Of a DNA stretch of 64,000 nucleotides, positions 38,843 to 52,347 are shown piece by piece. Below the pieces are notes generated by a model. It saw nothing but the letters and a program-made list of their open reading frames with translations, was not told the origin of the DNA and ran no database searches. How positions within the stretch are numbered: position 1 is the first letter of the stretch; every line of letters starts with the position of its first letter. The stretch lies in contig CAYNHT010000002.1 in the NCBI GenBank assembly GCA_964397485.1, positions 158,061 through 222,060 on the forward strand, written 5' to 3'. The position numbers were made by a program, and so were the translations under genes. Source of the DNA: an uncultured Muribaculaceae bacterium (lineage in GTDB: Bacteria; Bacillota_I; Bacilli_A; RF39; UBA660).

Positions 38843-38876
38843 GAAAAACAACTTCGTAAGAGGTTGTTTTCTTATT
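38843..38876 (+). terminator. Intrinsic terminator
   Basis: An ~11-bp stem (38845-38855 with 38860-38870, one G-U), loop gtaa, T-rich tail. Confidence 0.65.
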
Positions 38877-38913
38877 GATGTGATATAATGTATTTATAGA
38901 ATAGAGGGTTAGT

Positions 38914-41634
38914 ATGAAGTTATTTGTAAAATTAAATGTATCTATATTAATAATTCTTATATCTTTTTTTGCGATTTTTGATGTTAATAGTATTAATAAT
39001 CATACTAATACTCAATTAATTGATTTATCTTCAAATGATCCAGTAAAAGTATATCAAGCAGGAAAAGGTAAGTCTAAATATAAAAGTAATGAATTAATAA
39101 TAAATTTCAATGTTGAAGATTATAGTTATCTTGAAGACAAATATAATATAAAAGTTAATGATAAACTTGATAGTGATAATTATTTGATTGAATTTAATCC
39201 TAATGAATATACAATGGAAGAAATATTAATATTAGCTAATAAAGAACCTGGTATTGAATATGCAGAACCTAACTATGTTATGAAATTAGCATATTCACCA
39301 GTTTCTGAACAGTTTTATGATTATCTTTGGGCATTTAAAAACCCAACATACGGTATTAATATTACACCAGTTTGGGATGAAACTTTTGGACGTGATGAAG
39401 TTGTAGTAGCGATTGCTGATTCTGGTATTGATTATACCCACCCTGATTTGATATCTAATATATGGATTAATACTGAGGAAATATTAGGTAATGGTATAGA
39501 TGATGACGGTAATGGATATATAGACGATTATTACGGTTGGAATTTTTATCAAAATAATAATAATGTAATGGATTACAATGGGCATGGTACACATGTAGGG
39601 GGAATAATTGCTGCCGAAATAAATGGGGAAGGAATCGTAGGAACTGCACCTAATGTAAAAATTATGGCCTTAAAAGTTAGTGACATAGAAGGAAATGTAT
39701 ATTTAGATAAAGTTGTTTCTTCAATAAATTATGCGGTCAATAAAGGAGTTAAGATATTTAATTTTTCATTTGGAGGACCTGTCCAATATCAAGCTTTTGG
39801 CAATGCAATTGCTAACACGGATGCTTTGTTTTTATGTGCTGCAGGTAATGATGGTACTAATAACGATATTTTACCTTTCTATCCAGCAAGTTATAACTAT
39901 AATAATATTATTTCAGTTGCTGCTCATAGAGAAACAGGTGTTTTAGCGGACTTTTCTAATTATGGAATCAATTCTGTAGATGTATCTGCTCCTGGCCATA
40001 ATATTTTAAGCACCTATCCGCTATCACTCACACCAGATGGATATTATCCGTATATTTACTTTAATGGGACCTCGATGGCGGCTCCTTATGTATCTGGTTT
40101 AGCTGCTTTACTTTGGAGTCAAAACTCTAATTACAGTGTATCTGAAATACGGAATTATATTTTAAGTAATGTTAAAACGTATGGTTCATTTACAACAAAG
40201 GTATCTACAGGAGGTATTATAGATGCTTCAAAATCATATAGCGCGCTTATAGATTCACTATACGATGGTGGAAGTGGTACGATTGAAGACCCATATCTTA
40301 TCTCCAATGTGGAGCAATTTAATAATATAAGAAATAATTTAGCTGCCTCTTATAGATTAACAAGTAATTTAGATTTTACTTATGATACGACTAATGTTAA
40401 TGGTTTATTTTATAATAATGGTAAAGGTTGGTTACCAATTGGTAATAACGAAAGTAGCAGTAGTGGTTATACTGGTAATGCTTTTAATGGAAATTTTGAT
40501 GGAAATGGATATGTAATAAAGGGTTTGAATATTAATCGTCCGAGTGAATATTATTTAGGATTATTTGGTAATGTTGTTGGAATTGATACAGAGCATTCCA
40601 CGATCAAAAATCTTATCTTAGAAAACGGAAATATTAAAGGTCAAGGATATATAGGTGGATTGATTGGCTATGCACAATATGTTGATATATCAAATGTTGG
40701 GACAAATTTAAATATTATTGCATCAGACATGTATATAGGTGGGGTTGTTGGTTATATAGAGGGCAATATTAATAAATCATATAATACTGCTTTAATCGAA
40801 GCTTCTAGTAAAGCTGGTGGTATAGCCGGATCAATAATGGGTGATATTTATGATACCTTTAATTTAGGGATAATGAATAGGTATAACGATATTAATGTTA
40901 CTGATAGTGGCGGAATCGTTGGTGTATTATCTGGTAGTATGTCAAATTCATATAATTTGGGTATGTTAAGAGACAATAATTTTAAATTTTTTGTTGGACT
41001 TAATAATGGAGGAATTATTGATAATGTTTACTATTATAATCCATATAATTTAAATGAGGATATATATGGTGTACAATTGACGGAATCTGAAATATATGAA
41101 AGTGAAAGTTATATAAACTTTGATTTTGATAATGTATGGCAAATAAACATTAATAGTAAACTGCCAACATTAAGAGGAATGCCTTTTCATCAATTAACTG
41201 ATTATAATGTGGCTGATAAGTTAACTTTGAATATAAAAAAGGACCAGTCTTATAATTTAAATATCACAAATAATCCTAGCTTTAATTTAAGAAAAAATTA
41301 TGTTTACAGTAGTGATGATGAAAATATTGTTACCGTTGATAAAAATGGAAAGATTACACCTATAAAGATAGGGAATGCTGTCATAGAAATATATTCGATT
41401 GAACTGGGCGTTTCTAAATATATAGATGTTGAAGTAAAGATAGTTAAGGGTGATGTAAATAATGACGGTAATGTAACTATTACAGATTTGGTAAAGTTAA
41501 GTCGTCATCTAGCTGGATTAGAAACTATTCAAAGCAACTATTTAGAAAACGCTGATATTAATAATGATGGTAATGTAACTATTACAGATTTAGTAAAACT
41601 AAGTCGTCATCTAGCTGGATTGGAGGGAATATAA
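38914..41634 (+). CDS. Secreted subtilisin-like S8 peptidase with GLUG-type module, Big_2 domain and C-terminal type I dockerin
   Basis: Contains a signal peptide and an I9-like propeptide. Catalytic triad context AIADSGIDYTHPDL / HGTHVGGIIAA / GTSMAAPYVSG. A ~308-aa GLUG-type module spans 40267-41190, followed by an Ig-like Big_2 domain. Two Ca-binding dockerin segments DVNNDGNVTITD and DINNDGNVTITD lie at 41449-41631. Confidence 0.9.
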   Translation: MKLFVKLNVSILIILISFFAIFDVNSINNHTNTQLIDLSSNDPVKVYQAGKGKSKYKSNELIINFNVEDYSYLEDKYNIKVNDKLDSDNYLIEFNPNEYTMEEILILANKEPGIEYAEPNYVMKLAYSPVSEQFYDYLWAFKNPTYGINITPVWDETFGRDEVVVAIADSGIDYTHPDLISNIWINTEEILGNGIDDDGNGYIDDYYGWNFYQNNNNVMDYNGHGTHVGGIIAAEINGEGIVGTAPNVKIMALKVSDIEGNVYLDKVVSSINYAVNKGVKIFNFSFGGPVQYQAFGNAIANTDALFLCAAGNDGTNNDILPFYPASYNYNNIISVAAHRETGVLADFSNYGINSVDVSAPGHNILSTYPLSLTPDGYYPYIYFNGTSMAAPYVSGLAALLWSQNSNYSVSEIRNYILSNVKTYGSFTTKVSTGGIIDASKSYSALIDSLYDGGSGTIEDPYLISNVEQFNNIRNNLAASYRLTSNLDFTYDTTNVNGLFYNNGKGWLPIGNNESSSSGYTGNAFNGNFDGNGYVIKGLNINRPSEYYLGLFGNVVGIDTEHSTIKNLILENGNIKGQGYIGGLIGYAQYVDISNVGTNLNIIASDMYIGGVVGYIEGNINKSYNTALIEASSKAGGIAGSIMGDIYDTFNLGIMNRYNDINVTDSGGIVGVLSGSMSNSYNLGMLRDNNFKFFVGLNNGGIIDNVYYYNPYNLNEDIYGVQLTESEIYESESYINFDFDNVWQININSKLPTLRGMPFHQLTDYNVADKLTLNIKKDQSYNLNITNNPSFNLRKNYVYSSDDENIVTVDKNGKITPIKIGNAVIEIYSIELGVSKYIDVEVKIVKGDVNNDGNVTITDLVKLSRHLAGLETIQSNYLENADINNDGNVTITDLVKLSRHLAGLEGI

Positions 41635-41635
41635 A

Positions 41636-43240
41636 ATGAAAAAGAAATTGATTTATCTGGTACTATTAATGGGATTATTTATTGTGCTTCCTGTTAAGGC
41701 TGCCAATTTTTCAACATCAATAAGTGGGGTTTCTAATATAGCCTTAAACCAACAATTTACTGTTACTTTTAATGTTGTTAATGGAACAAATATTATGGGG
41801 GTTGATGGATTATTAAATTATGATTCTTCCAAACTTACATTAGTGTCATCATCTGGATTAAATGGTTTTACTGTTGTAACGGGAAGTAGGTTAGTTGCAT
41901 ATAAGACAACGGGAAAATCTGGAACTTTTGGGTTTGCTACTTTTACTTTTAAAGCAAAAAGTACTTTTACTGCAGGGCAAAGTACAACAATCTCTTTATC
42001 TGATGTTAAAGGATCTAATGGTAGTGATATAAGTGGTAGTAGTAGTGTAAAAACGATTAAAGTTGTCTCTAGTAATAATAATCTATCATCTTTAAAAATT
42101 GATGGAACAACTATTAGTGGTTTTAGTCCTACCAAGACTTCTTATAGTATAACTGTACCTAACAATAAAAATTCTGTTGCAATTAGTGCTGTAGCTGAAA
42201 GTTCTAGCAGTAACATTATTGGAACTGGCAATAAAAATTTAAATGTTTATGCAAATACTTATAACATTGTAGTTACAGCGGAAAATGGTTCTAAAAAAAC
42301 ATATACTATAACTATATATCGCAAAGATGCGGATGGTTTAACTTCCCCAAAGTCTACAGATAGTACATTGAAAAATTTAAAAGTAACTAATTATGATATT
42401 AAATTTAATTCATCAACAACAAAGTATGACTTGAAAGTAGATAATAATATAACAAATTTAAAGGTTGAAGCATTGTCAAATAGTGATAAAGCTAAGGTTA
42501 CTATAGATAATCCTAGTGAATTAAAAGTGGGTATTAATATTATTAAAATTACTGTACAGGCTGAGGATAATTCGGTAACTGAATATGTGATAAATGTTAC
42601 AAGAAGTGGTGAGGGCCCTACAACGACTTTAGATAAACTGATTGATATAGTAAAAACAACAACGGCAAATACTATAAATGTTGATATAAAAGATAATAAT
42701 ACTGAAATAAGTTCTGATATGTTAAATGAAATAAAAAATAGTCAGAAGCAAGTTATTATAAATCATTATAATTCTAGTGATAACATAACTTACATTTGGA
42801 AAATAAATGGTACTAAGTTGATTAATGACAAAACTATAAATACTAATATAAATTTCACTTCTCCAAATGTAGAGGCTATTAACGAATTGACTAATTATTC
42901 TAATTATCTTATATTAAATTTTGATCATTCAGGTGATTTGCCAGAAAACACAACTGTTACAATATATGTGGGCGATAAATATAAAGATGGTGATGTATTA
43001 AAATTATATTATTATTCATCAGAAGACAATAAGATAGAATTAAATCGTGATAATTTAAAGGTGGAAAATGGTTATGTAGAATTCGAACTAGAACATTGTT
43101 CTGAGTACTTATTGTCAATGGCTAATTTTACGAGAGCTAATATTGAGAGTAATACAACTATATTACTTTTGCAGATAATTCTAGTAATTGAGACAATTTT
43201 TATAGCATACTTACTAATAAAGAAAAAAATAACGGGTTAA
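41636..43240 (+). CDS. Membrane-anchored cohesin-domain protein with two cadherin-like beta-sandwich domains
   Basis: Starts 1 nt after the protease stop and has a signal peptide. The ~130-aa N-terminal domain has a cohesin-like pattern (FTVTFNVVNGTNIMGVDGLLNYDSSKLTLVS...GTFGFATFTFKAKS). Two NLSSLKIDG.../LKNLKVTN... cadherin-like modules follow, then a C-terminal TM helix plus KKKITG. Confidence 0.7.
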   Translation: MKKKLIYLVLLMGLFIVLPVKAANFSTSISGVSNIALNQQFTVTFNVVNGTNIMGVDGLLNYDSSKLTLVSSSGLNGFTVVTGSRLVAYKTTGKSGTFGFATFTFKAKSTFTAGQSTTISLSDVKGSNGSDISGSSSVKTIKVVSSNNNLSSLKIDGTTISGFSPTKTSYSITVPNNKNSVAISAVAESSSSNIIGTGNKNLNVYANTYNIVVTAENGSKKTYTITIYRKDADGLTSPKSTDSTLKNLKVTNYDIKFNSSTTKYDLKVDNNITNLKVEALSNSDKAKVTIDNPSELKVGINIIKITVQAEDNSVTEYVINVTRSGEGPTTTLDKLIDIVKTTTANTINVDIKDNNTEISSDMLNEIKNSQKQVIINHYNSSDNITYIWKINGTKLINDKTINTNINFTSPNVEAINELTNYSNYLILNFDHSGDLPENTTVTIYVGDKYKDGDVLKLYYYSSEDNKIELNRDNLKVENGYVEFELEHCSEYLLSMANFTRANIESNTTILLLQIILVIETIFIAYLLIKKKITG

Positions 43241-43281
43241 ATAATTTCAAACAAAAAAGCTAAAAATAAGATTTAGTTTTT

Positions 43282-43371
43282 TTACCAACCACAATTACAG
43301 AAAATAATTACTAAAAGAATGAAAATAACTATTATAAAACTTGCGTTTGTACCTGATTTACATGGTTTCAT
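43282..43371 (-). CDS. Tiny YjcZ-like membrane peptide (29 aa), not in ORF track
   Basis: Hand translation gives MKPCKSGTNASFIIVIFILLVIIFCNCGW. Strong SD aaaggagag lies 7 nt upstream and a hairpin lies downstream. It is a paralog of the 57888-57977 ORF. Confidence 0.6.
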   Translation of the reverse strand: MKPCKSGTNASFIIVIFILLVIIFCNCGW

Positions 43372-48225: not shown

Positions 48226-51200
48226 ATGAATAAAAAGGGATTTACTTTAATAGAACTATTAGCGGTAATAGTTATTATTGCAATTATTTTGAGTGTTACT
48301 GTCCCATTAGTAATGGGGATTATAGATGATGTAAGAGATGCCGCAAACGAGAGACAAAAAGAATTAATAGTAAAAGCAGCGGAAAAATATGTTTTTTTCA
48401 ATAGTGATGTTTTAGCTGATATATCTGAAATAGACTCATTTACTTATATAACAATTGGTGATTTAATAGATGCTAATTTAATTGGTAGTAATTTAAGAAA
48501 TATAAAAAAGAATACTATTTTAAATAAAGATCAAAAGATAAAAATTATAAATAGAGGAAATGGTTATTATAGTTATTATTTTGTTGATGAAGATGGAGAA
48601 GAAGAGGAAATTATTATTATTGATAATGGATCTAATGGCGTAATTGATCCTGATTATACCTATAGTTATGGTAGTGGAACATCTGAAGACCCATATCAAA
48701 TAAGAGGTTTAACAGATTTAAACCATGTGCGCTTAGAAGAAAGTGCTAATTATGTTTTAATGACTAATATTAATGCTGAATATACAAGAGATTGGAATGA
48801 TGGTGCAGGTTGGGTTCCGTTAGGAAATTCTGTTAGTAATTATAATGGGATTATAGATGGAAATGGATATACAATAAGTAATTTATATATAAATCGACCT
48901 ACAGATGACTATCAAGGATTTATTGGTTATCTTGGGATTGATTCAAGTATTTCTAATATAAATTTAATTAACGTTGATATAACAGGGAAAAATTATGTAG
49001 GGGCGGTTTCTGGATATATAAACAGGTCAAACATTGATAGCGTTACAGTTGCTGGTAATGTATCGGGCTACAATAACATTGGAATGGTTTCAGGGTATTC
49101 AATGCTATCGGATGTATCAAATGTGGTAACGTTAGGTTCAGTAACAGGAAATAGTAATGTAGGAGCAATAAATGGTTATCAAAATAGAATGAATTTATCA
49201 AATAGTTATTCATTTGCCGATGTAACAGGAAGTAGTAATGTAGGGGGACTTGTTGGATATTTATATGGTTCCTCATCAAGTGCAACTGGAAATATAACAA
49301 ATTCTTATTTTTCAGGAACTGTATCTGGTAGTAGTTATGTAGAACCTATAGTAGGAAGGTTTAATAGTAATGTTAACATATCTAGTACATATTGGGATAC
49401 TGAAGTAACAGGAATATCTAGCGCTACTCATGGCGAAGGTTTATTAACTTTTAGGATGAAAATGGAAAGCAGTTTTATAGATTGGGACTTTAACAATGTA
49501 TGGGATATAATAGAAAATGAAACATTCCCTTATTTAAGGCATCAGGGAGGACCTTTGGACGAATATCCCGAGACTATCGATAATGGTGTAATGTTAGGTG
49601 ATGGTACAGCAGAAAATCCTTATCAAATAAGAAATTTAGCAAGCCTAGATCAAATAAGAAATGTCTCTAATGCGCACTATGTTCTTAAAAATAATATAGA
49701 TGCAAGTGATACAATAAATTGGAATGATGGTACAGGATGGCTACCAATTGGAGATAATTCCGTCAAGTTTAGTGGAGTAATAGATGGAAATGGGTATAGC
49801 ATAAATAATTTATATATAAATAGACCAACTACTGACTATCAGGGATTAGTTGGATATTTGGATACAGGTGGAGAAGTAAAAAATTTAATATTAAACGATG
49901 TTAATATCACTGCCAGAAATTATGCCGGAGGATTAGTTGGATATTTAAATGGATCATCATTGAGTAATATAGGTGTAAGCGGAACTGTCACTACTTATAA
50001 TTACGGTGGAATGATAACTGGATATGCCACTTTATCACAGATAAATAATGCCTTTAGTGTTGGTGATTTGACTGGGAATACTAACGTTGGAGGAATAAGT
50101 GGATACCAAAATCGAACTGATTTATTTAACAGTTATTCAGTAGCTAATGTAACTGGAAGTGGAACTGTTGGAGGTTTAACAGGATATTTGTTAGGTGCAA
50201 ATTCTAGTAGTCGAGCATTTATTACAAATAGTTATTATGCTGGAAAATTAGTTGGTGGTAGTTATACCGATATGATCGCAGGTAGAACGAATAGTTATAT
50301 AACAGTCACTGATACATATTGGGATGCTGAACAGGTTGGTAGAACTAGTTTGGGTGAAGGTCAAGCAATCTATACAATTGAGATGAAAAATAAAGATAGA
50401 TTCGTAAATTGGGATTTTGAAAATATTTGGGGTATCAATGAAGGTCTAACATATCCGTATTTGAAACATCAAAATGGTCCACTAACAAGCTATCCTGAAA
50501 CAACACAGGGAGGAATAACTTTAGGTACGGGGACTATTGATGATCCATATCAAGTATCTACATTGGTTGGGTTAGGTCAAATGGCTAATATAGTTAATGC
50601 GCACTATATCCTAATATCGAATATAAATGCAGGTGATACGACAAATTGGAATAATGGAACAGGATGGATACCTGTTGGTAATAATTCTGTAAATTTTATT
50701 GGATCAATTGATGGAAATGGTTATACAATAAGTAATTTATATATAAATAGACCAACTACCGATTATCAAGGGTTAGTTGGTTATCTTGGAACAAATGCAA
50801 GTGTTTCTAATTTACGATTATTAAATATTAACATTACAGGAAGAAATTATACATCTGGTTTATCAGGATATTCAAATGAAGCAGAGATAACAAATGTAGG
50901 AATAGAAGGAAATGTAAATGGTAATAATTACGTTGGGATGATTACAGGTTATTCGATGTCAACTAATATTAATCAGTCTTATAGTAATGGTGAATTGATA
51001 GGCACTTCATATCTAGGTGGAATAAGTGGATATCAAAACAGAATGAACTTAATAAATAGTTACTCACTTATTGATATAAGTGGAACATCATATGTTGGCG
51101 GATTAGTGGGATATTTAGTTGGTGGTAATTCTAGTCTTATAGGGCGAATAGAAAATTCATATTATGCAGGTAATATAACTGGAGGAAGTTATACAGATCC

Positions 51201-52347
51201 AATAGCTGGAAGAACTAATAGTTATATTAATATTACAAATACATATTGGGATGCTGAAAGTGCAAATATACCATCTTCTAGTAATGGTGAAGGTATGTTT
51301 ATTTTCCAAATGAAGAATAAAAATAGTTATGAAAATTGGGATTTTTCTAACATATGGAGTATTGGAGAAAATCAAACATATCCATATTTGAAATTTCAGG
51401 AGAATCCATTTGCTACTTATCCTGAAACAACAGCAAATAGAATAATTATGGGTAATGGTACTGTTGAAAACCCGTATCAAGTACCAACTCTTATTGGATT
51501 AAATCAAATAAGATATTTAATTAATTCTAATTATATATTGACAGCAAATATAAACGCTAATGATACATCTAGTTGGAATAATGGCGAAGGATGGATACCT
51601 ATTGGAGATAATAGTGTACAATTTAAAGGAACAATCGATGGAAATGGGTATGTTATTAATAATTTACATATAAATCGATCAACCTCTAGTTATCAGGGTC
51701 TATTTGGGTATCTAGGAGATGGAAGTAGTATCATTAATTTACACTTAAGTAATTTGAGTATTAATGGCAGAGATTACATCGGTGGGATTGCTGGATATGC
51801 AAACTTATCATCTGTTAGTAATGTATCTGTTCAAGGTGATATCAACGGTAGAAATTATCTTGGAATGATCGTAGGTTATTCTATGTACAGTAATATTGAT
51901 AAATCATATAGTAATGGCTTTGTAACTGGTGCTTCATATCTAGGAGGAATAAGTGGATATCAAAATAGATTTTATATGACAAATAGTTATTCTAGTTCTA
52001 ATATAAGTGGAAGCACTTATATTGGAGGACTAACTGGATATCTTTATAGTTCAACAAGTGCGGCTCGAGCCGAAATTATTAATTGCTACTTTGCAGGAAC
52101 AATAACCGGTGGAAGCTATACTGCTCCTATTGGCGGAAGGGTTAATAACCATACTGTCATCAGTACCTATTGGGATAAAGACATAAACGGAATTCAAAGT
52201 TCTACTAGTGGTGAAGGAAAAACTACGACTGAGATGAAAAATTTAAATACTTTTATAGATTGGGATTTTACCAATATATGGAATATTCAATCAGGCACAT
52301 CTTATCCTTTTTTAAGAGGTAATCAACAAATACCAGTGCCACAATAA
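48226..52347 (+). CDS. Giant prepilin-type N-terminal cleavage/methylation domain protein with four GLUG-type repeat modules
   Basis: MNKKG|FTLIELLAVIVIIAIILSVTVPLV (class III signal peptide, Glu+5), then a ~125-aa pilin-like head and an acidic linker (DEDGEEEE). Four homologous 309-aa modules follow, each with xDPYQI...GW(L/I/V)P(I/L/V)G...IDGNGY.I.NLYINRPT.DYQG and multiple xxVGGLxGY (GLUG) turns. Confidence 0.9.
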   Translation: MNKKGFTLIELLAVIVIIAIILSVTVPLVMGIIDDVRDAANERQKELIVKAAEKYVFFNSDVLADISEIDSFTYITIGDLIDANLIGSNLRNIKKNTILNKDQKIKIINRGNGYYSYYFVDEDGEEEEIIIIDNGSNGVIDPDYTYSYGSGTSEDPYQIRGLTDLNHVRLEESANYVLMTNINAEYTRDWNDGAGWVPLGNSVSNYNGIIDGNGYTISNLYINRPTDDYQGFIGYLGIDSSISNINLINVDITGKNYVGAVSGYINRSNIDSVTVAGNVSGYNNIGMVSGYSMLSDVSNVVTLGSVTGNSNVGAINGYQNRMNLSNSYSFADVTGSSNVGGLVGYLYGSSSSATGNITNSYFSGTVSGSSYVEPIVGRFNSNVNISSTYWDTEVTGISSATHGEGLLTFRMKMESSFIDWDFNNVWDIIENETFPYLRHQGGPLDEYPETIDNGVMLGDGTAENPYQIRNLASLDQIRNVSNAHYVLKNNIDASDTINWNDGTGWLPIGDNSVKFSGVIDGNGYSINNLYINRPTTDYQGLVGYLDTGGEVKNLILNDVNITARNYAGGLVGYLNGSSLSNIGVSGTVTTYNYGGMITGYATLSQINNAFSVGDLTGNTNVGGISGYQNRTDLFNSYSVANVTGSGTVGGLTGYLLGANSSSRAFITNSYYAGKLVGGSYTDMIAGRTNSYITVTDTYWDAEQVGRTSLGEGQAIYTIEMKNKDRFVNWDFENIWGINEGLTYPYLKHQNGPLTSYPETTQGGITLGTGTIDDPYQVSTLVGLGQMANIVNAHYILISNINAGDTTNWNNGTGWIPVGNNSVNFIGSIDGNGYTISNLYINRPTTDYQGLVGYLGTNASVSNLRLLNINITGRNYTSGLSGYSNEAEITNVGIEGNVNGNNYVGMITGYSMSTNINQSYSNGELIGTSYLGGISGYQNRMNLINSYSLIDISGTSYVGGLVGYLVGGNSSLIGRIENSYYAGNITGGSYTDPIAGRTNSYINITNTYWDAESANIPSSSNGEGMFIFQMKNKNSYENWDFSNIWSIGENQTYPYLKFQENPFATYPETTANRIIMGNGTVENPYQVPTLIGLNQIRYLINSNYILTANINANDTSSWNNGEGWIPIGDNSVQFKGTIDGNGYVINNLHINRSTSSYQGLFGYLGDGSSIINLHLSNLSINGRDYIGGIAGYANLSSVSNVSVQGDINGRNYLGMIVGYSMYSNIDKSYSNGFVTGASYLGGISGYQNRFYMTNSYSSSNISGSTYIGGLTGYLYSSTSAARAEIINCYFAGTITGGSYTAPIGGRVNNHTVISTYWDKDINGIQSSTSGEGKTTTEMKNLNTFIDWDFTNIWNIQSGTSYPFLRGNQQIPVPQ
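48670..52344 (+). repeat. Four tandem coding repeats with an exact 927-nt (309-codon) period
   Basis: The conserved Pro codon of the DPYQ motif falls at 48691, 49618, 50545 and 51472, each exactly 927 nt apart. Units start at about 48670, 49597, 50524 and 51451, and the last is 11 codons short. The copies have diverged; they are not near-identical DNA. Confidence 0.9.

Follow-up and report, generated by a model that had tools for sequence, protein, structure and literature searches.

Single-cohesin anchors, dockerin-bearing proteases and a two-gene cohesin/dockerin operon are all already known, and the concept taken up here is not new. OlpA and OlpC of Clostridium thermocellum carry one type I cohesin together with S-layer homology (SLH) modules, and ScaE of Ruminococcus flavefaciens carries one cohesin and is anchored by sortase. 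The modules of Clostridium perfringens (GH84C, GH33; PDB 2w1n, 2vo8, 2jh2) are non-cellulosomal, come from a non-cellulolytic Firmicute and belong to glycoside hydrolase toxins; in the work of Adams et al. 2008, cohesin and dockerin are both reportedly borne by soluble, secreted enzymes, which associate with one another. The survey of Peer et al. 2009 is said to have catalogued cohesin and dockerin modules of organisms that are not cellulolytic, many of them on proteins other than carbohydrate-active enzymes (CAZymes). ScaE binds a dockerin-bearing cysteine peptidase, and cellulosomal bacteria are known to have both S8 and cysteine peptidases with a dockerin (review PMC12484212). In Cellulosilyticum lentocellum, one operon of two genes encodes the ClcC/ClcD pair of a single-cohesin protein and a single-dockerin enzyme, for which heterodimer formation was shown experimentally; the scaffold targets cellulose through a carbohydrate-binding module (CBM), and its cargo is a GH5 cellulase whose dockerin is asymmetric, so that a single binding mode is predicted (PMC13487519, 2026). 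The subject of this report is a gene pair on a 64-kb stretch of contig CAYNHT010000002.1 (the window, in which all positions are given), where a secreted S8 subtilase ending in a dockerin (gene 1) is followed by a membrane-anchored protein with one cohesin (gene 2, the anchor). The pair is probably a two-gene operon for the non-covalent, non-cellulosomal display of a protease at the cell surface, in which the dockerin would bind the cohesin in a Ca-dependent manner and in two orientations, on an anchor whose N-terminus would lie outside the cell.

In function, the pair comes nearest to ClcC/ClcD and to OlpA/OlpC and ScaE, the monovalent anchoring scaffoldins of cellulosome producers. With OlpA/OlpC and ScaE the pair shares the principle of a cell-bound, single-cohesin protein that captures a dockerin enzyme at the surface, and OlpC (4dh2) and ScaE (2zf9) are among its structural matches. 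It differs from them in having a C-terminal transmembrane helix in place of SLH modules or an LPXTG motif, a stalk of cadherin-like repeats and a 177-aa domain, no cellulosome context, and partner and anchor in what appears to be one operon. The likeness to ClcC/ClcD lies in two adjacent, co-oriented genes with one cohesin and one dockerin, here 1 nt apart and in a putative shared transcription unit, whereas CBM and cellulase are absent and the scaffold is transmembrane-anchored, the cargo an S8 protease and the dockerin symmetric. An earlier note on this DNA had called non-cellulosomal pairs rarely characterised, a statement that needs updating in view of the complex demonstrated for the products of the ClcC/ClcD operon (PMC13487519). 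The C. perfringens modules are the closest structural matches and are likewise non-cellulosomal, but lack a membrane anchor, operon pairing and a protease cargo. The dockerin peptidases of cellulosomal bacteria likewise join a dockerin to an S8 or papain-like catalytic module, but they dock on multi-cohesin scaffoldins and presumably process components of the cellulosome, whereas gene 1 has a dedicated one-cohesin anchor and no cellulosome. Set apart from all of these are the transmembrane anchor, the cadherin-like stalk with its 177-aa domain, the operonic pairing with an exchangeable non-CAZyme cargo, and the phylogenetic setting. No published description of a conserved cassette of dockerin-bearing cargo and transmembrane cohesin anchor, or of its co-variation, was found in a literature search of incomplete coverage.

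The dockerin and the cohesin anchor

The C-terminus of gene 1 matched Dockerin_1 (PF00404) at 50.3 bits against a threshold of 22.9 and contains, as in type I dockerins, two segments in which a Ca-binding loop (D-x-N-x-D-G...D) precedes a helix, such segments being ~22-24 residues long. The segments begin 34 residues apart (102 nt from start to start, as the earlier note had it) and are identical at 23 of 24 residues; their DNA shows 87% identity over 82 nt (64/72 in the core), for which the former wording "nearly identical" was a slight overstatement. Since the differences comprise six synonymous changes and one conservative V/I change, the symmetry is maintained by purifying selection on the protein; a very recent duplication would not by itself account for it. 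Positions 10-11 (I-T), 17-18 (S-R) and 22 (G) are the same in both halves. Conservation of the recognition residues in both repeats is the sequence mark of dual-binding-mode dockerins (PMC13487519), and the gene 1 dockerin carries it. Across the family, identity at positions 9-22 of the recognition helix is 80% between the halves of one dockerin and 35% between different dockerins; for 43 of the 49 dockerins compared, segment 1 was closer to segment 2 of the same protein than to either segment of any dockerin less than 70% identical. The two halves therefore evolve in concert across the family. Concerted evolution and the 23/24 symmetry fit the dual binding mode suggested earlier from the symmetric dockerin alone; with two practically identical helices, binding in either orientation is probably possible.

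Gene 2 begins with a signal peptide, followed by a domain that, excised as residues 23-149, reached 24.6 bits with the Cohesin profile of Pfam (PF00963), which has its gathering cut-off at 24.1 (E 3.1e-5, profile positions 3-135 of 139). Homologues, including one 55% identical, scored against PF00963 at residues ~27-144 with 24.4-30.6 bits and align to anchor residues 23-146. A phmmer search of the anchor against PDB sequences returned nothing meaningful; a profile of the anchor family found cellulosomal cohesins as its best matches (3l8q, E 0.004, then 5g5d), which is weak but specific. In the AlphaFold2 (AF2) model the region has a predicted local distance difference test score (pLDDT) of about 90 and forms a nine-stranded beta-sandwich (jelly-roll) that superposes on solved cohesins. 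The best single-domain Foldseek matches were solved cohesins, led by C. perfringens GH33 2vo8 (template modelling score, TM-score, 0.78; root mean square deviation 2.1 Å over 133 columns) and 2jh2 (0.77), which with GH84C 2w1n belong to the modules named above (0.77-0.78); further matches were Acetivibrio cellulolyticus ScaB Coh6 (5nrm, 0.68), C. thermocellum OlpC (4dh2, 0.61) and R. flavefaciens ScaE (2zf9). The modelled N-terminal domain of the anchor is thus a cohesin, with a marginal sequence score and clear fold evidence.

The remainder of the anchor consists of two cadherin-like domains, a conserved juxtamembrane domain and a C-terminal transmembrane helix (Table 1). The cadherin-like domains would act as a stalk, and their number varies from 1 to 6 among homologues, of which the protein database holds more than 630. 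The juxtamembrane domain (aa 327-503) had no Pfam match, and the structure search of the PDB gave nothing better than E 2.3e-3 and a TM-score of 0.41 (ankyrin ZU5). It is modelled very confidently and could represent a fold or family not yet described. The earlier note fared well in this part of the locus. Both open reading frames (ORFs), their lengths of 906 and 534 aa and the 1-nt gap are exactly as it gave them, and its division of the anchor into signal peptide, cohesin-like sandwich, two cadherin-like domains and C-terminal transmembrane segment was borne out by hidden Markov model (HMM) searches, hydropathy and AF2. The HMM searches it proposed gave matches for Peptidase_S8, Dockerin_1 and Cadherin-like, and for Cohesin on the isolated domain only. 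Its reading hung on the N-terminal domain of the 534-aa protein scoring or folding as a cohesin, which came out as a narrow pass in sequence and a plain one in structure. Three features had escaped it: the prodomain of the protease, the ~320-aa GLUG/M26_N-like module and the 177-aa domain of the anchor.

Pairing, co-variation and cargo exchange in related loci

An S8-dockerin gene also precedes each of three anchor homologues (55%, 48% and 40% identity), amid wholly different flanking genes. A synteny scan was then made with one genome per GTDB species (80 loci, given below as L numbers), in which ORFs were searched with HMMs built from the modules of the window. Anchor-like genes were taken as those that are cadherin-like, shorter than 900 aa and without a dockerin of their own (73 non-redundant, mostly from different species). 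A dockerin-ending gene was present in the same locus for 66 of the 73, usually abutting upstream; the pairing is thus conserved. Among the 33 loci with a full-length cohesin HMM match, the dockerin gene abuts or overlaps upstream on the same strand in 24, is adjacent and divergent in three (L031, L032, L035), is separated by one inserted gene in three (L004, L010, L018) and is missing within 7 kb in three (L009, L012, L013). As a side observation, an Erysipelotrichaceae clade (compare L004, L010, L011, L018) carries a Rieske/VanA_C oxygenase gene between protease and anchor; three species of the clade (L009, L012, L013) lack the protease-dockerin gene.

The window itself contains one dockerin motif in all six frames. 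This supports only in part the former description of the pair as self-contained, which does not hold throughout the family, where orphan anchors and a two-cargo locus (L039) occur. A dockerin-only search of a 5.8-billion protein set scored 133 candidates and missed even the protease of the window, so that nothing can be concluded from it on other carriers of the gene 1 dockerin.

In 53 non-redundant pairs, dockerin distance correlated with the distance of the anchor N-terminal domain at r = 0.77 and with that of the first cadherin-like repeat at r = 0.37; the partial correlation of dockerin and N-terminal domain given the cadherin-like repeat was 0.72 (p <= 5e-4), and the reverse partial was -0.01. 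The test was repeated on 23 pairs with positionally orthologous controls, giving r = 0.87 between dockerin and cohesin and a partial r of 0.78 (p = 2e-4) given the C-terminal domain of the anchor. Given the cohesin, the residual correlation of the dockerin was 0.12 with the C-terminal domain and 0.02 with the cadherin-like repeat. The cohesin correlated with the other domains of its own protein at 0.65 and 0.45, below its correlation with a dockerin on a separate polypeptide. Dockerin divergence tracks the cohesin domain specifically.

The cargo in front of the anchor is not constant. The combination of S8 domain and GLUG module is confined to the closest relatives, and other dockerin cargoes are S8 proteases without the GLUG module or with BspA-type leucine-rich repeats (LRRs), papain-like C1 peptidases with or without a lectin-like domain, a GH73 glucosaminidase, LRR proteins, an FctA pilin-like protein, and proteins with SH3_3 and cadherin-like domains. 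No plant-polysaccharide enzyme occurs among the 17 cargoes sampled, which makes the system non-cellulosomal; the constant element of the cassette family is the dockerin-cohesin junction. Membership in a cellulosome was considered and rejected, as neither the pair nor the related loci contain a CAZyme, a CBM or a multi-cohesin scaffoldin; the pair combines a one-cohesin anchor with a protease cargo and has no CBM or CAZyme in either protein.

Several loci depart from the one-cargo layout. At L039:504-8338, two tandem papain-like C1 peptidase genes with similar dockerins precede a single anchor gene, and one socket apparently serves both cargoes. The metagenome-assembled genome (MAG) RGIG3038 holds two cassettes, L027 and L048, with an FctA pilin-like protein and a C1 peptidase with a lectin-like domain as cargoes; their dockerin helices are clearly different, which suggests orthogonal pairs within one cell. 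Giant proteins with many cadherin-like repeats and a dockerin at the end are encoded at L050:2537-15925 (4463 aa) and L044:214-6987 (2258 aa), the latter directly upstream of an anchor gene. L019, L021, L022 and L024 (e.g., Candidatus Onthocola) have ~1570-aa dockerin cargoes with Big_2 domains and no recognised catalytic domain, and their anchors are shorter (394-aa ORFs) and without a match to the C-terminal domain.

The cassette is hosted by uncultured Erysipelotrichaceae, Bacilli and "Tenericutes" MAGs and by a few Clostridia MAGs. Four cassette contigs (L030, L049, L059, L069) were binned into Candidatus Saccharimonas, Prevotellaceae or Muribaculaceae MAGs and could be mis-binned Bacilli contigs or instances of horizontal transfer.

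Proposed display mechanism and competing readings

Under the proposed mechanism, both products would be exported by Sec and the anchor would be held by its C-terminal helix as a type I membrane protein, with its C-terminus inside. Its single cohesin would be lifted off the membrane on a stalk of the two cadherin-like domains and the 177-aa juxtamembrane domain, the length of which would vary among homologues. The subtilase, once its prodomain is removed, would plug its C-terminal Ca-binding dockerin into the cohesin, probably in either of two orientations related by 180 degrees, and the docked protease would be retained at the surface by Ca-dependent binding and would not diffuse away. In the cassette family of uncultured Erysipelotrichaceae and related Bacilli, the cognate dockerin/cohesin interface would be kept together while the cargo is exchanged. 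A further claim, put forward tentatively, is that these cassettes form a widespread, previously undescribed display system of that group, in which a transmembrane-anchored monovalent cohesin is encoded after its cognate cargo, with many orthogonal, co-evolving dockerin/cohesin pairs, sometimes several per genome, and freely exchanged cargoes (proteases, wall hydrolases, adhesins).

Some observations weigh against display by a dedicated pair. The full-length anchor has no Cohesin match in Pfam (only Cadherin-like) and nothing in NCBIfam, and the Cohesin score of the isolated domain exceeds the cut-off by 0.5 bit. The three related species L009, L012 and L013 have orphan anchors, the protease being absent from its slot in their clade, and the locus was found in none of the RNA-seq runs searched. 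The coding regions of dockerin and cohesin lie less than 100 nt apart, so their block co-inheritance during cassette shuffling could produce correlated divergence in place of interface co-evolution; even then, dockerin and cohesin behave as a unit. The marginal HMM score, together with the resemblance of cohesin-like sandwiches to other Ig-like folds (CLIPPER and Rib matches), would also suit two proteins that are co-expressed and do not bind each other, the anchor being an adhesin or substrate-binding protein and the dockerin a Ca-dependent stabiliser or a binder of, e.g., a wall polymer. This is improbable, as genuine dockerin-binding cohesins lead the structural matches, the co-variation of the dockerin is with the cohesin domain, not with other parts of the anchor, and a dockerin is kept across at least six unrelated cargo types beside such an anchor.

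A somewhat better candidate, though still an unlikely one, is a shared socket, for whose cohesin dockerin proteins encoded elsewhere would compete, or whose cognate dockerin would also bind other cohesins, the pair then being the visible part of a larger non-cellulosomal network. The two C1 peptidase genes before one anchor, the MAG with two cassettes, the orphan anchors and the giant dockerin-ending proteins of relatives all speak for such sharing, whereas the single dockerin motif of the window, the clearly different dockerin helices of the two cassettes in one MAG, which suggest orthogonal pairs, and the tight co-variation of dockerin and cohesin argue for one-to-one matching. There is very little to recommend an anchor that mainly controls the protease, holding it during prodomain removal or limiting self-damage until the active enzyme is released: no inhibitor-like or chaperone-like domain was detectable in the anchor by Pfam or structure searches, and the non-enzymatic cargoes (LRR, FctA-like) on the same type of anchor fit display better, even though the pro-enzyme architecture, a probable translational coupling that suggests stoichiometric co-production, and GH73 wall hydrolases among the cargoes, whose location must be controlled, would suit it.

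If the further claim of a widespread display system is correct, the cassettes would do the work of LPXTG anchoring non-covalently and without sortase. Should the pair bind, cohesin-dockerin chemistry would be used well outside plant-fibre degradation, as a general and modular means of pinning proteases, wall hydrolases and adhesins to cells in a large and barely studied group of Firmicutes from sludge, groundwater, rumen and gut. It would also give a function to many hypothetical "cadherin-like domain-containing" proteins, explain how extracellular proteases stay cell-associated in these bacteria, and offer dozens of naturally matched, probably orthogonal, symmetric cohesin/dockerin pairs for protein-assembly engineering.

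Locus layout, protease domains and source

The coordinates of the pair and its surroundings are collected in Table 1.

Table 1. Sequence features of the protease-anchor pair and its flanks (window positions; RBS, ribosome-binding site).
Feature	Position	Strand	Basis
Terminator-like hairpin closing the upstream HD-domain gene and insulating the cassette	38845..38870	+	Sole terminator-like site detected between 38100 and 44000
Extended -10 promoter-like element TGATATAAT	38881..38889	+	Consensus match, read from sequence
RBS GAGGG of gene 1	38904-38908	+	Sequence
Gene 1: secreted S8 subtilase pre-pro-enzyme, dockerin at C-terminus, 906 aa	38914..41634	+	ORF and Pfam
Prodomain, Fervidolysin_NPro-like, aa 45-120	39046..39273	+	Pfam PF22148, 28.7 bits vs cut-off 21
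Peptidase_S8 catalytic domain, aa 161-424	39394..40185	+	Pfam E 1.8e-56
GLUG/M26_N-like repeat module, aa ~449-768 (~320 aa), between S8 and Big_2	40258..41217	+	Glug PF07581, conservation
Big_2 Ig-like spacer, aa 772-827	41227..41394	+	Pfam 23.2 bits vs 22.8
Type I dockerin, aa 845-906	41446..41631	+	Pfam Dockerin_1 aa 845-900, E 2.7e-13, 50.3 bits
Dockerin segment 1, aa 847-870	41452-41523	+	DNA repeat, DxNNDGNVTITD + LVKLSRHLAGLE
Dockerin segment 2, aa 881-904	41554-41625	+	DNA repeat, DxNNDGNVTITD + LVKLSRHLAGLE
RBS GGAGGG of gene 2, inside last dockerin codons, 9 nt before ATG	41621..41626	+	Sequence
Gene 2: membrane-anchored single-cohesin protein, 534 aa	41636..43240	+	ORF; AF2 model pLDDT 88.6
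Signal peptide of anchor, 22 aa	41636-41701	+	
Cohesin domain, aa 23-146	41702..42073	+	PF00963, homologues, profile, fold
Two cadherin-like beta-sandwich domains, aa 150-326	42083..42613	+	Pfam PF12733, E 7.5e-17, two stretches
Conserved juxtamembrane domain, aa 327-503 (177 aa)	42614..43144	+	AF2 pLDDT 94.3, predicted TM-score (pTM) 0.88
C-terminal transmembrane helix, aa 507-533, basic tail KKKITG	43154..43234	+	Hydropathy >1.6 at windows 505-514; AF2 helix
A/U-rich 12-bp hairpin and U-run, likely intrinsic terminator closing the two-gene unit	43253..43283	+	-7.4 kcal/mol, z = -4.94 vs shuffles

The stop codon TAA of gene 1 (41632-41634) is followed by a single A (41635) and the ATG of gene 2 at 41636, so that the junction reads GGA TTG GAG GGA ATA TAA A ATG. 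The position of the gene 2 RBS inside the dockerin codons and the 1-nt gap suggest that the two genes are co-transcribed and make translational coupling probable. A second promoter-like match lies at 38875-38902 as a candidate by consensus only. The sigma-70 promoter scan was at background (48 found, 44 expected), and of the promoter candidates only the extended -10 element, which is sensibly placed, was relied upon. The flanking genes (MarR-like, MATE-like, HD, DUF1801, DUF2207_C, ABC transporter) are unrelated to the pair, which, going by its layout, is best read as a stand-alone bicistronic unit.

Gene 1 starts with a hydrophobic signal segment. The subtilase catalytic residues D169, H224, N312 (oxyanion Asn) and S387 are intact, with canonical motifs in the canonical order, as in other members of S8, and the nearest solved catalytic domain is that of the collagenolytic subtilase deseasin MCP-01 (3vv3, E 3.4e-54). 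Because of this similarity, the protease probably scavenges extracellular protein. The middle module scored 19.2 bits against Glug PF07581, slightly below the threshold of 20.5; it is kept in the closest cargo orthologues of the protease and is probably a beta-helix-type accessory or substrate-binding region.

Ten sludge metagenome runs contained all sampled words of the window (100%), and the habitats of relatives include groundwater and lakes as well as rumen and gut. With the locus in sludge and its relatives in mixed habitats, the suggestion in the earlier note of a gut-type anaerobe that degrades host or mucus protein is without basis, and the role of gut mucus degrader was rejected.

Elsewhere in the window, the ORF at 48226-52347 (+; 1373 aa) has a type IV pilin-like N_methyl motif at residues 2-24, followed by four tandem ~290-aa modules homologous to the middle region of the protease, with Peptidase_M26_N and Glug above threshold. 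It looks like a giant pilin-like or pseudopilin protein made of the GLUG/M26_N-like module of the protease.

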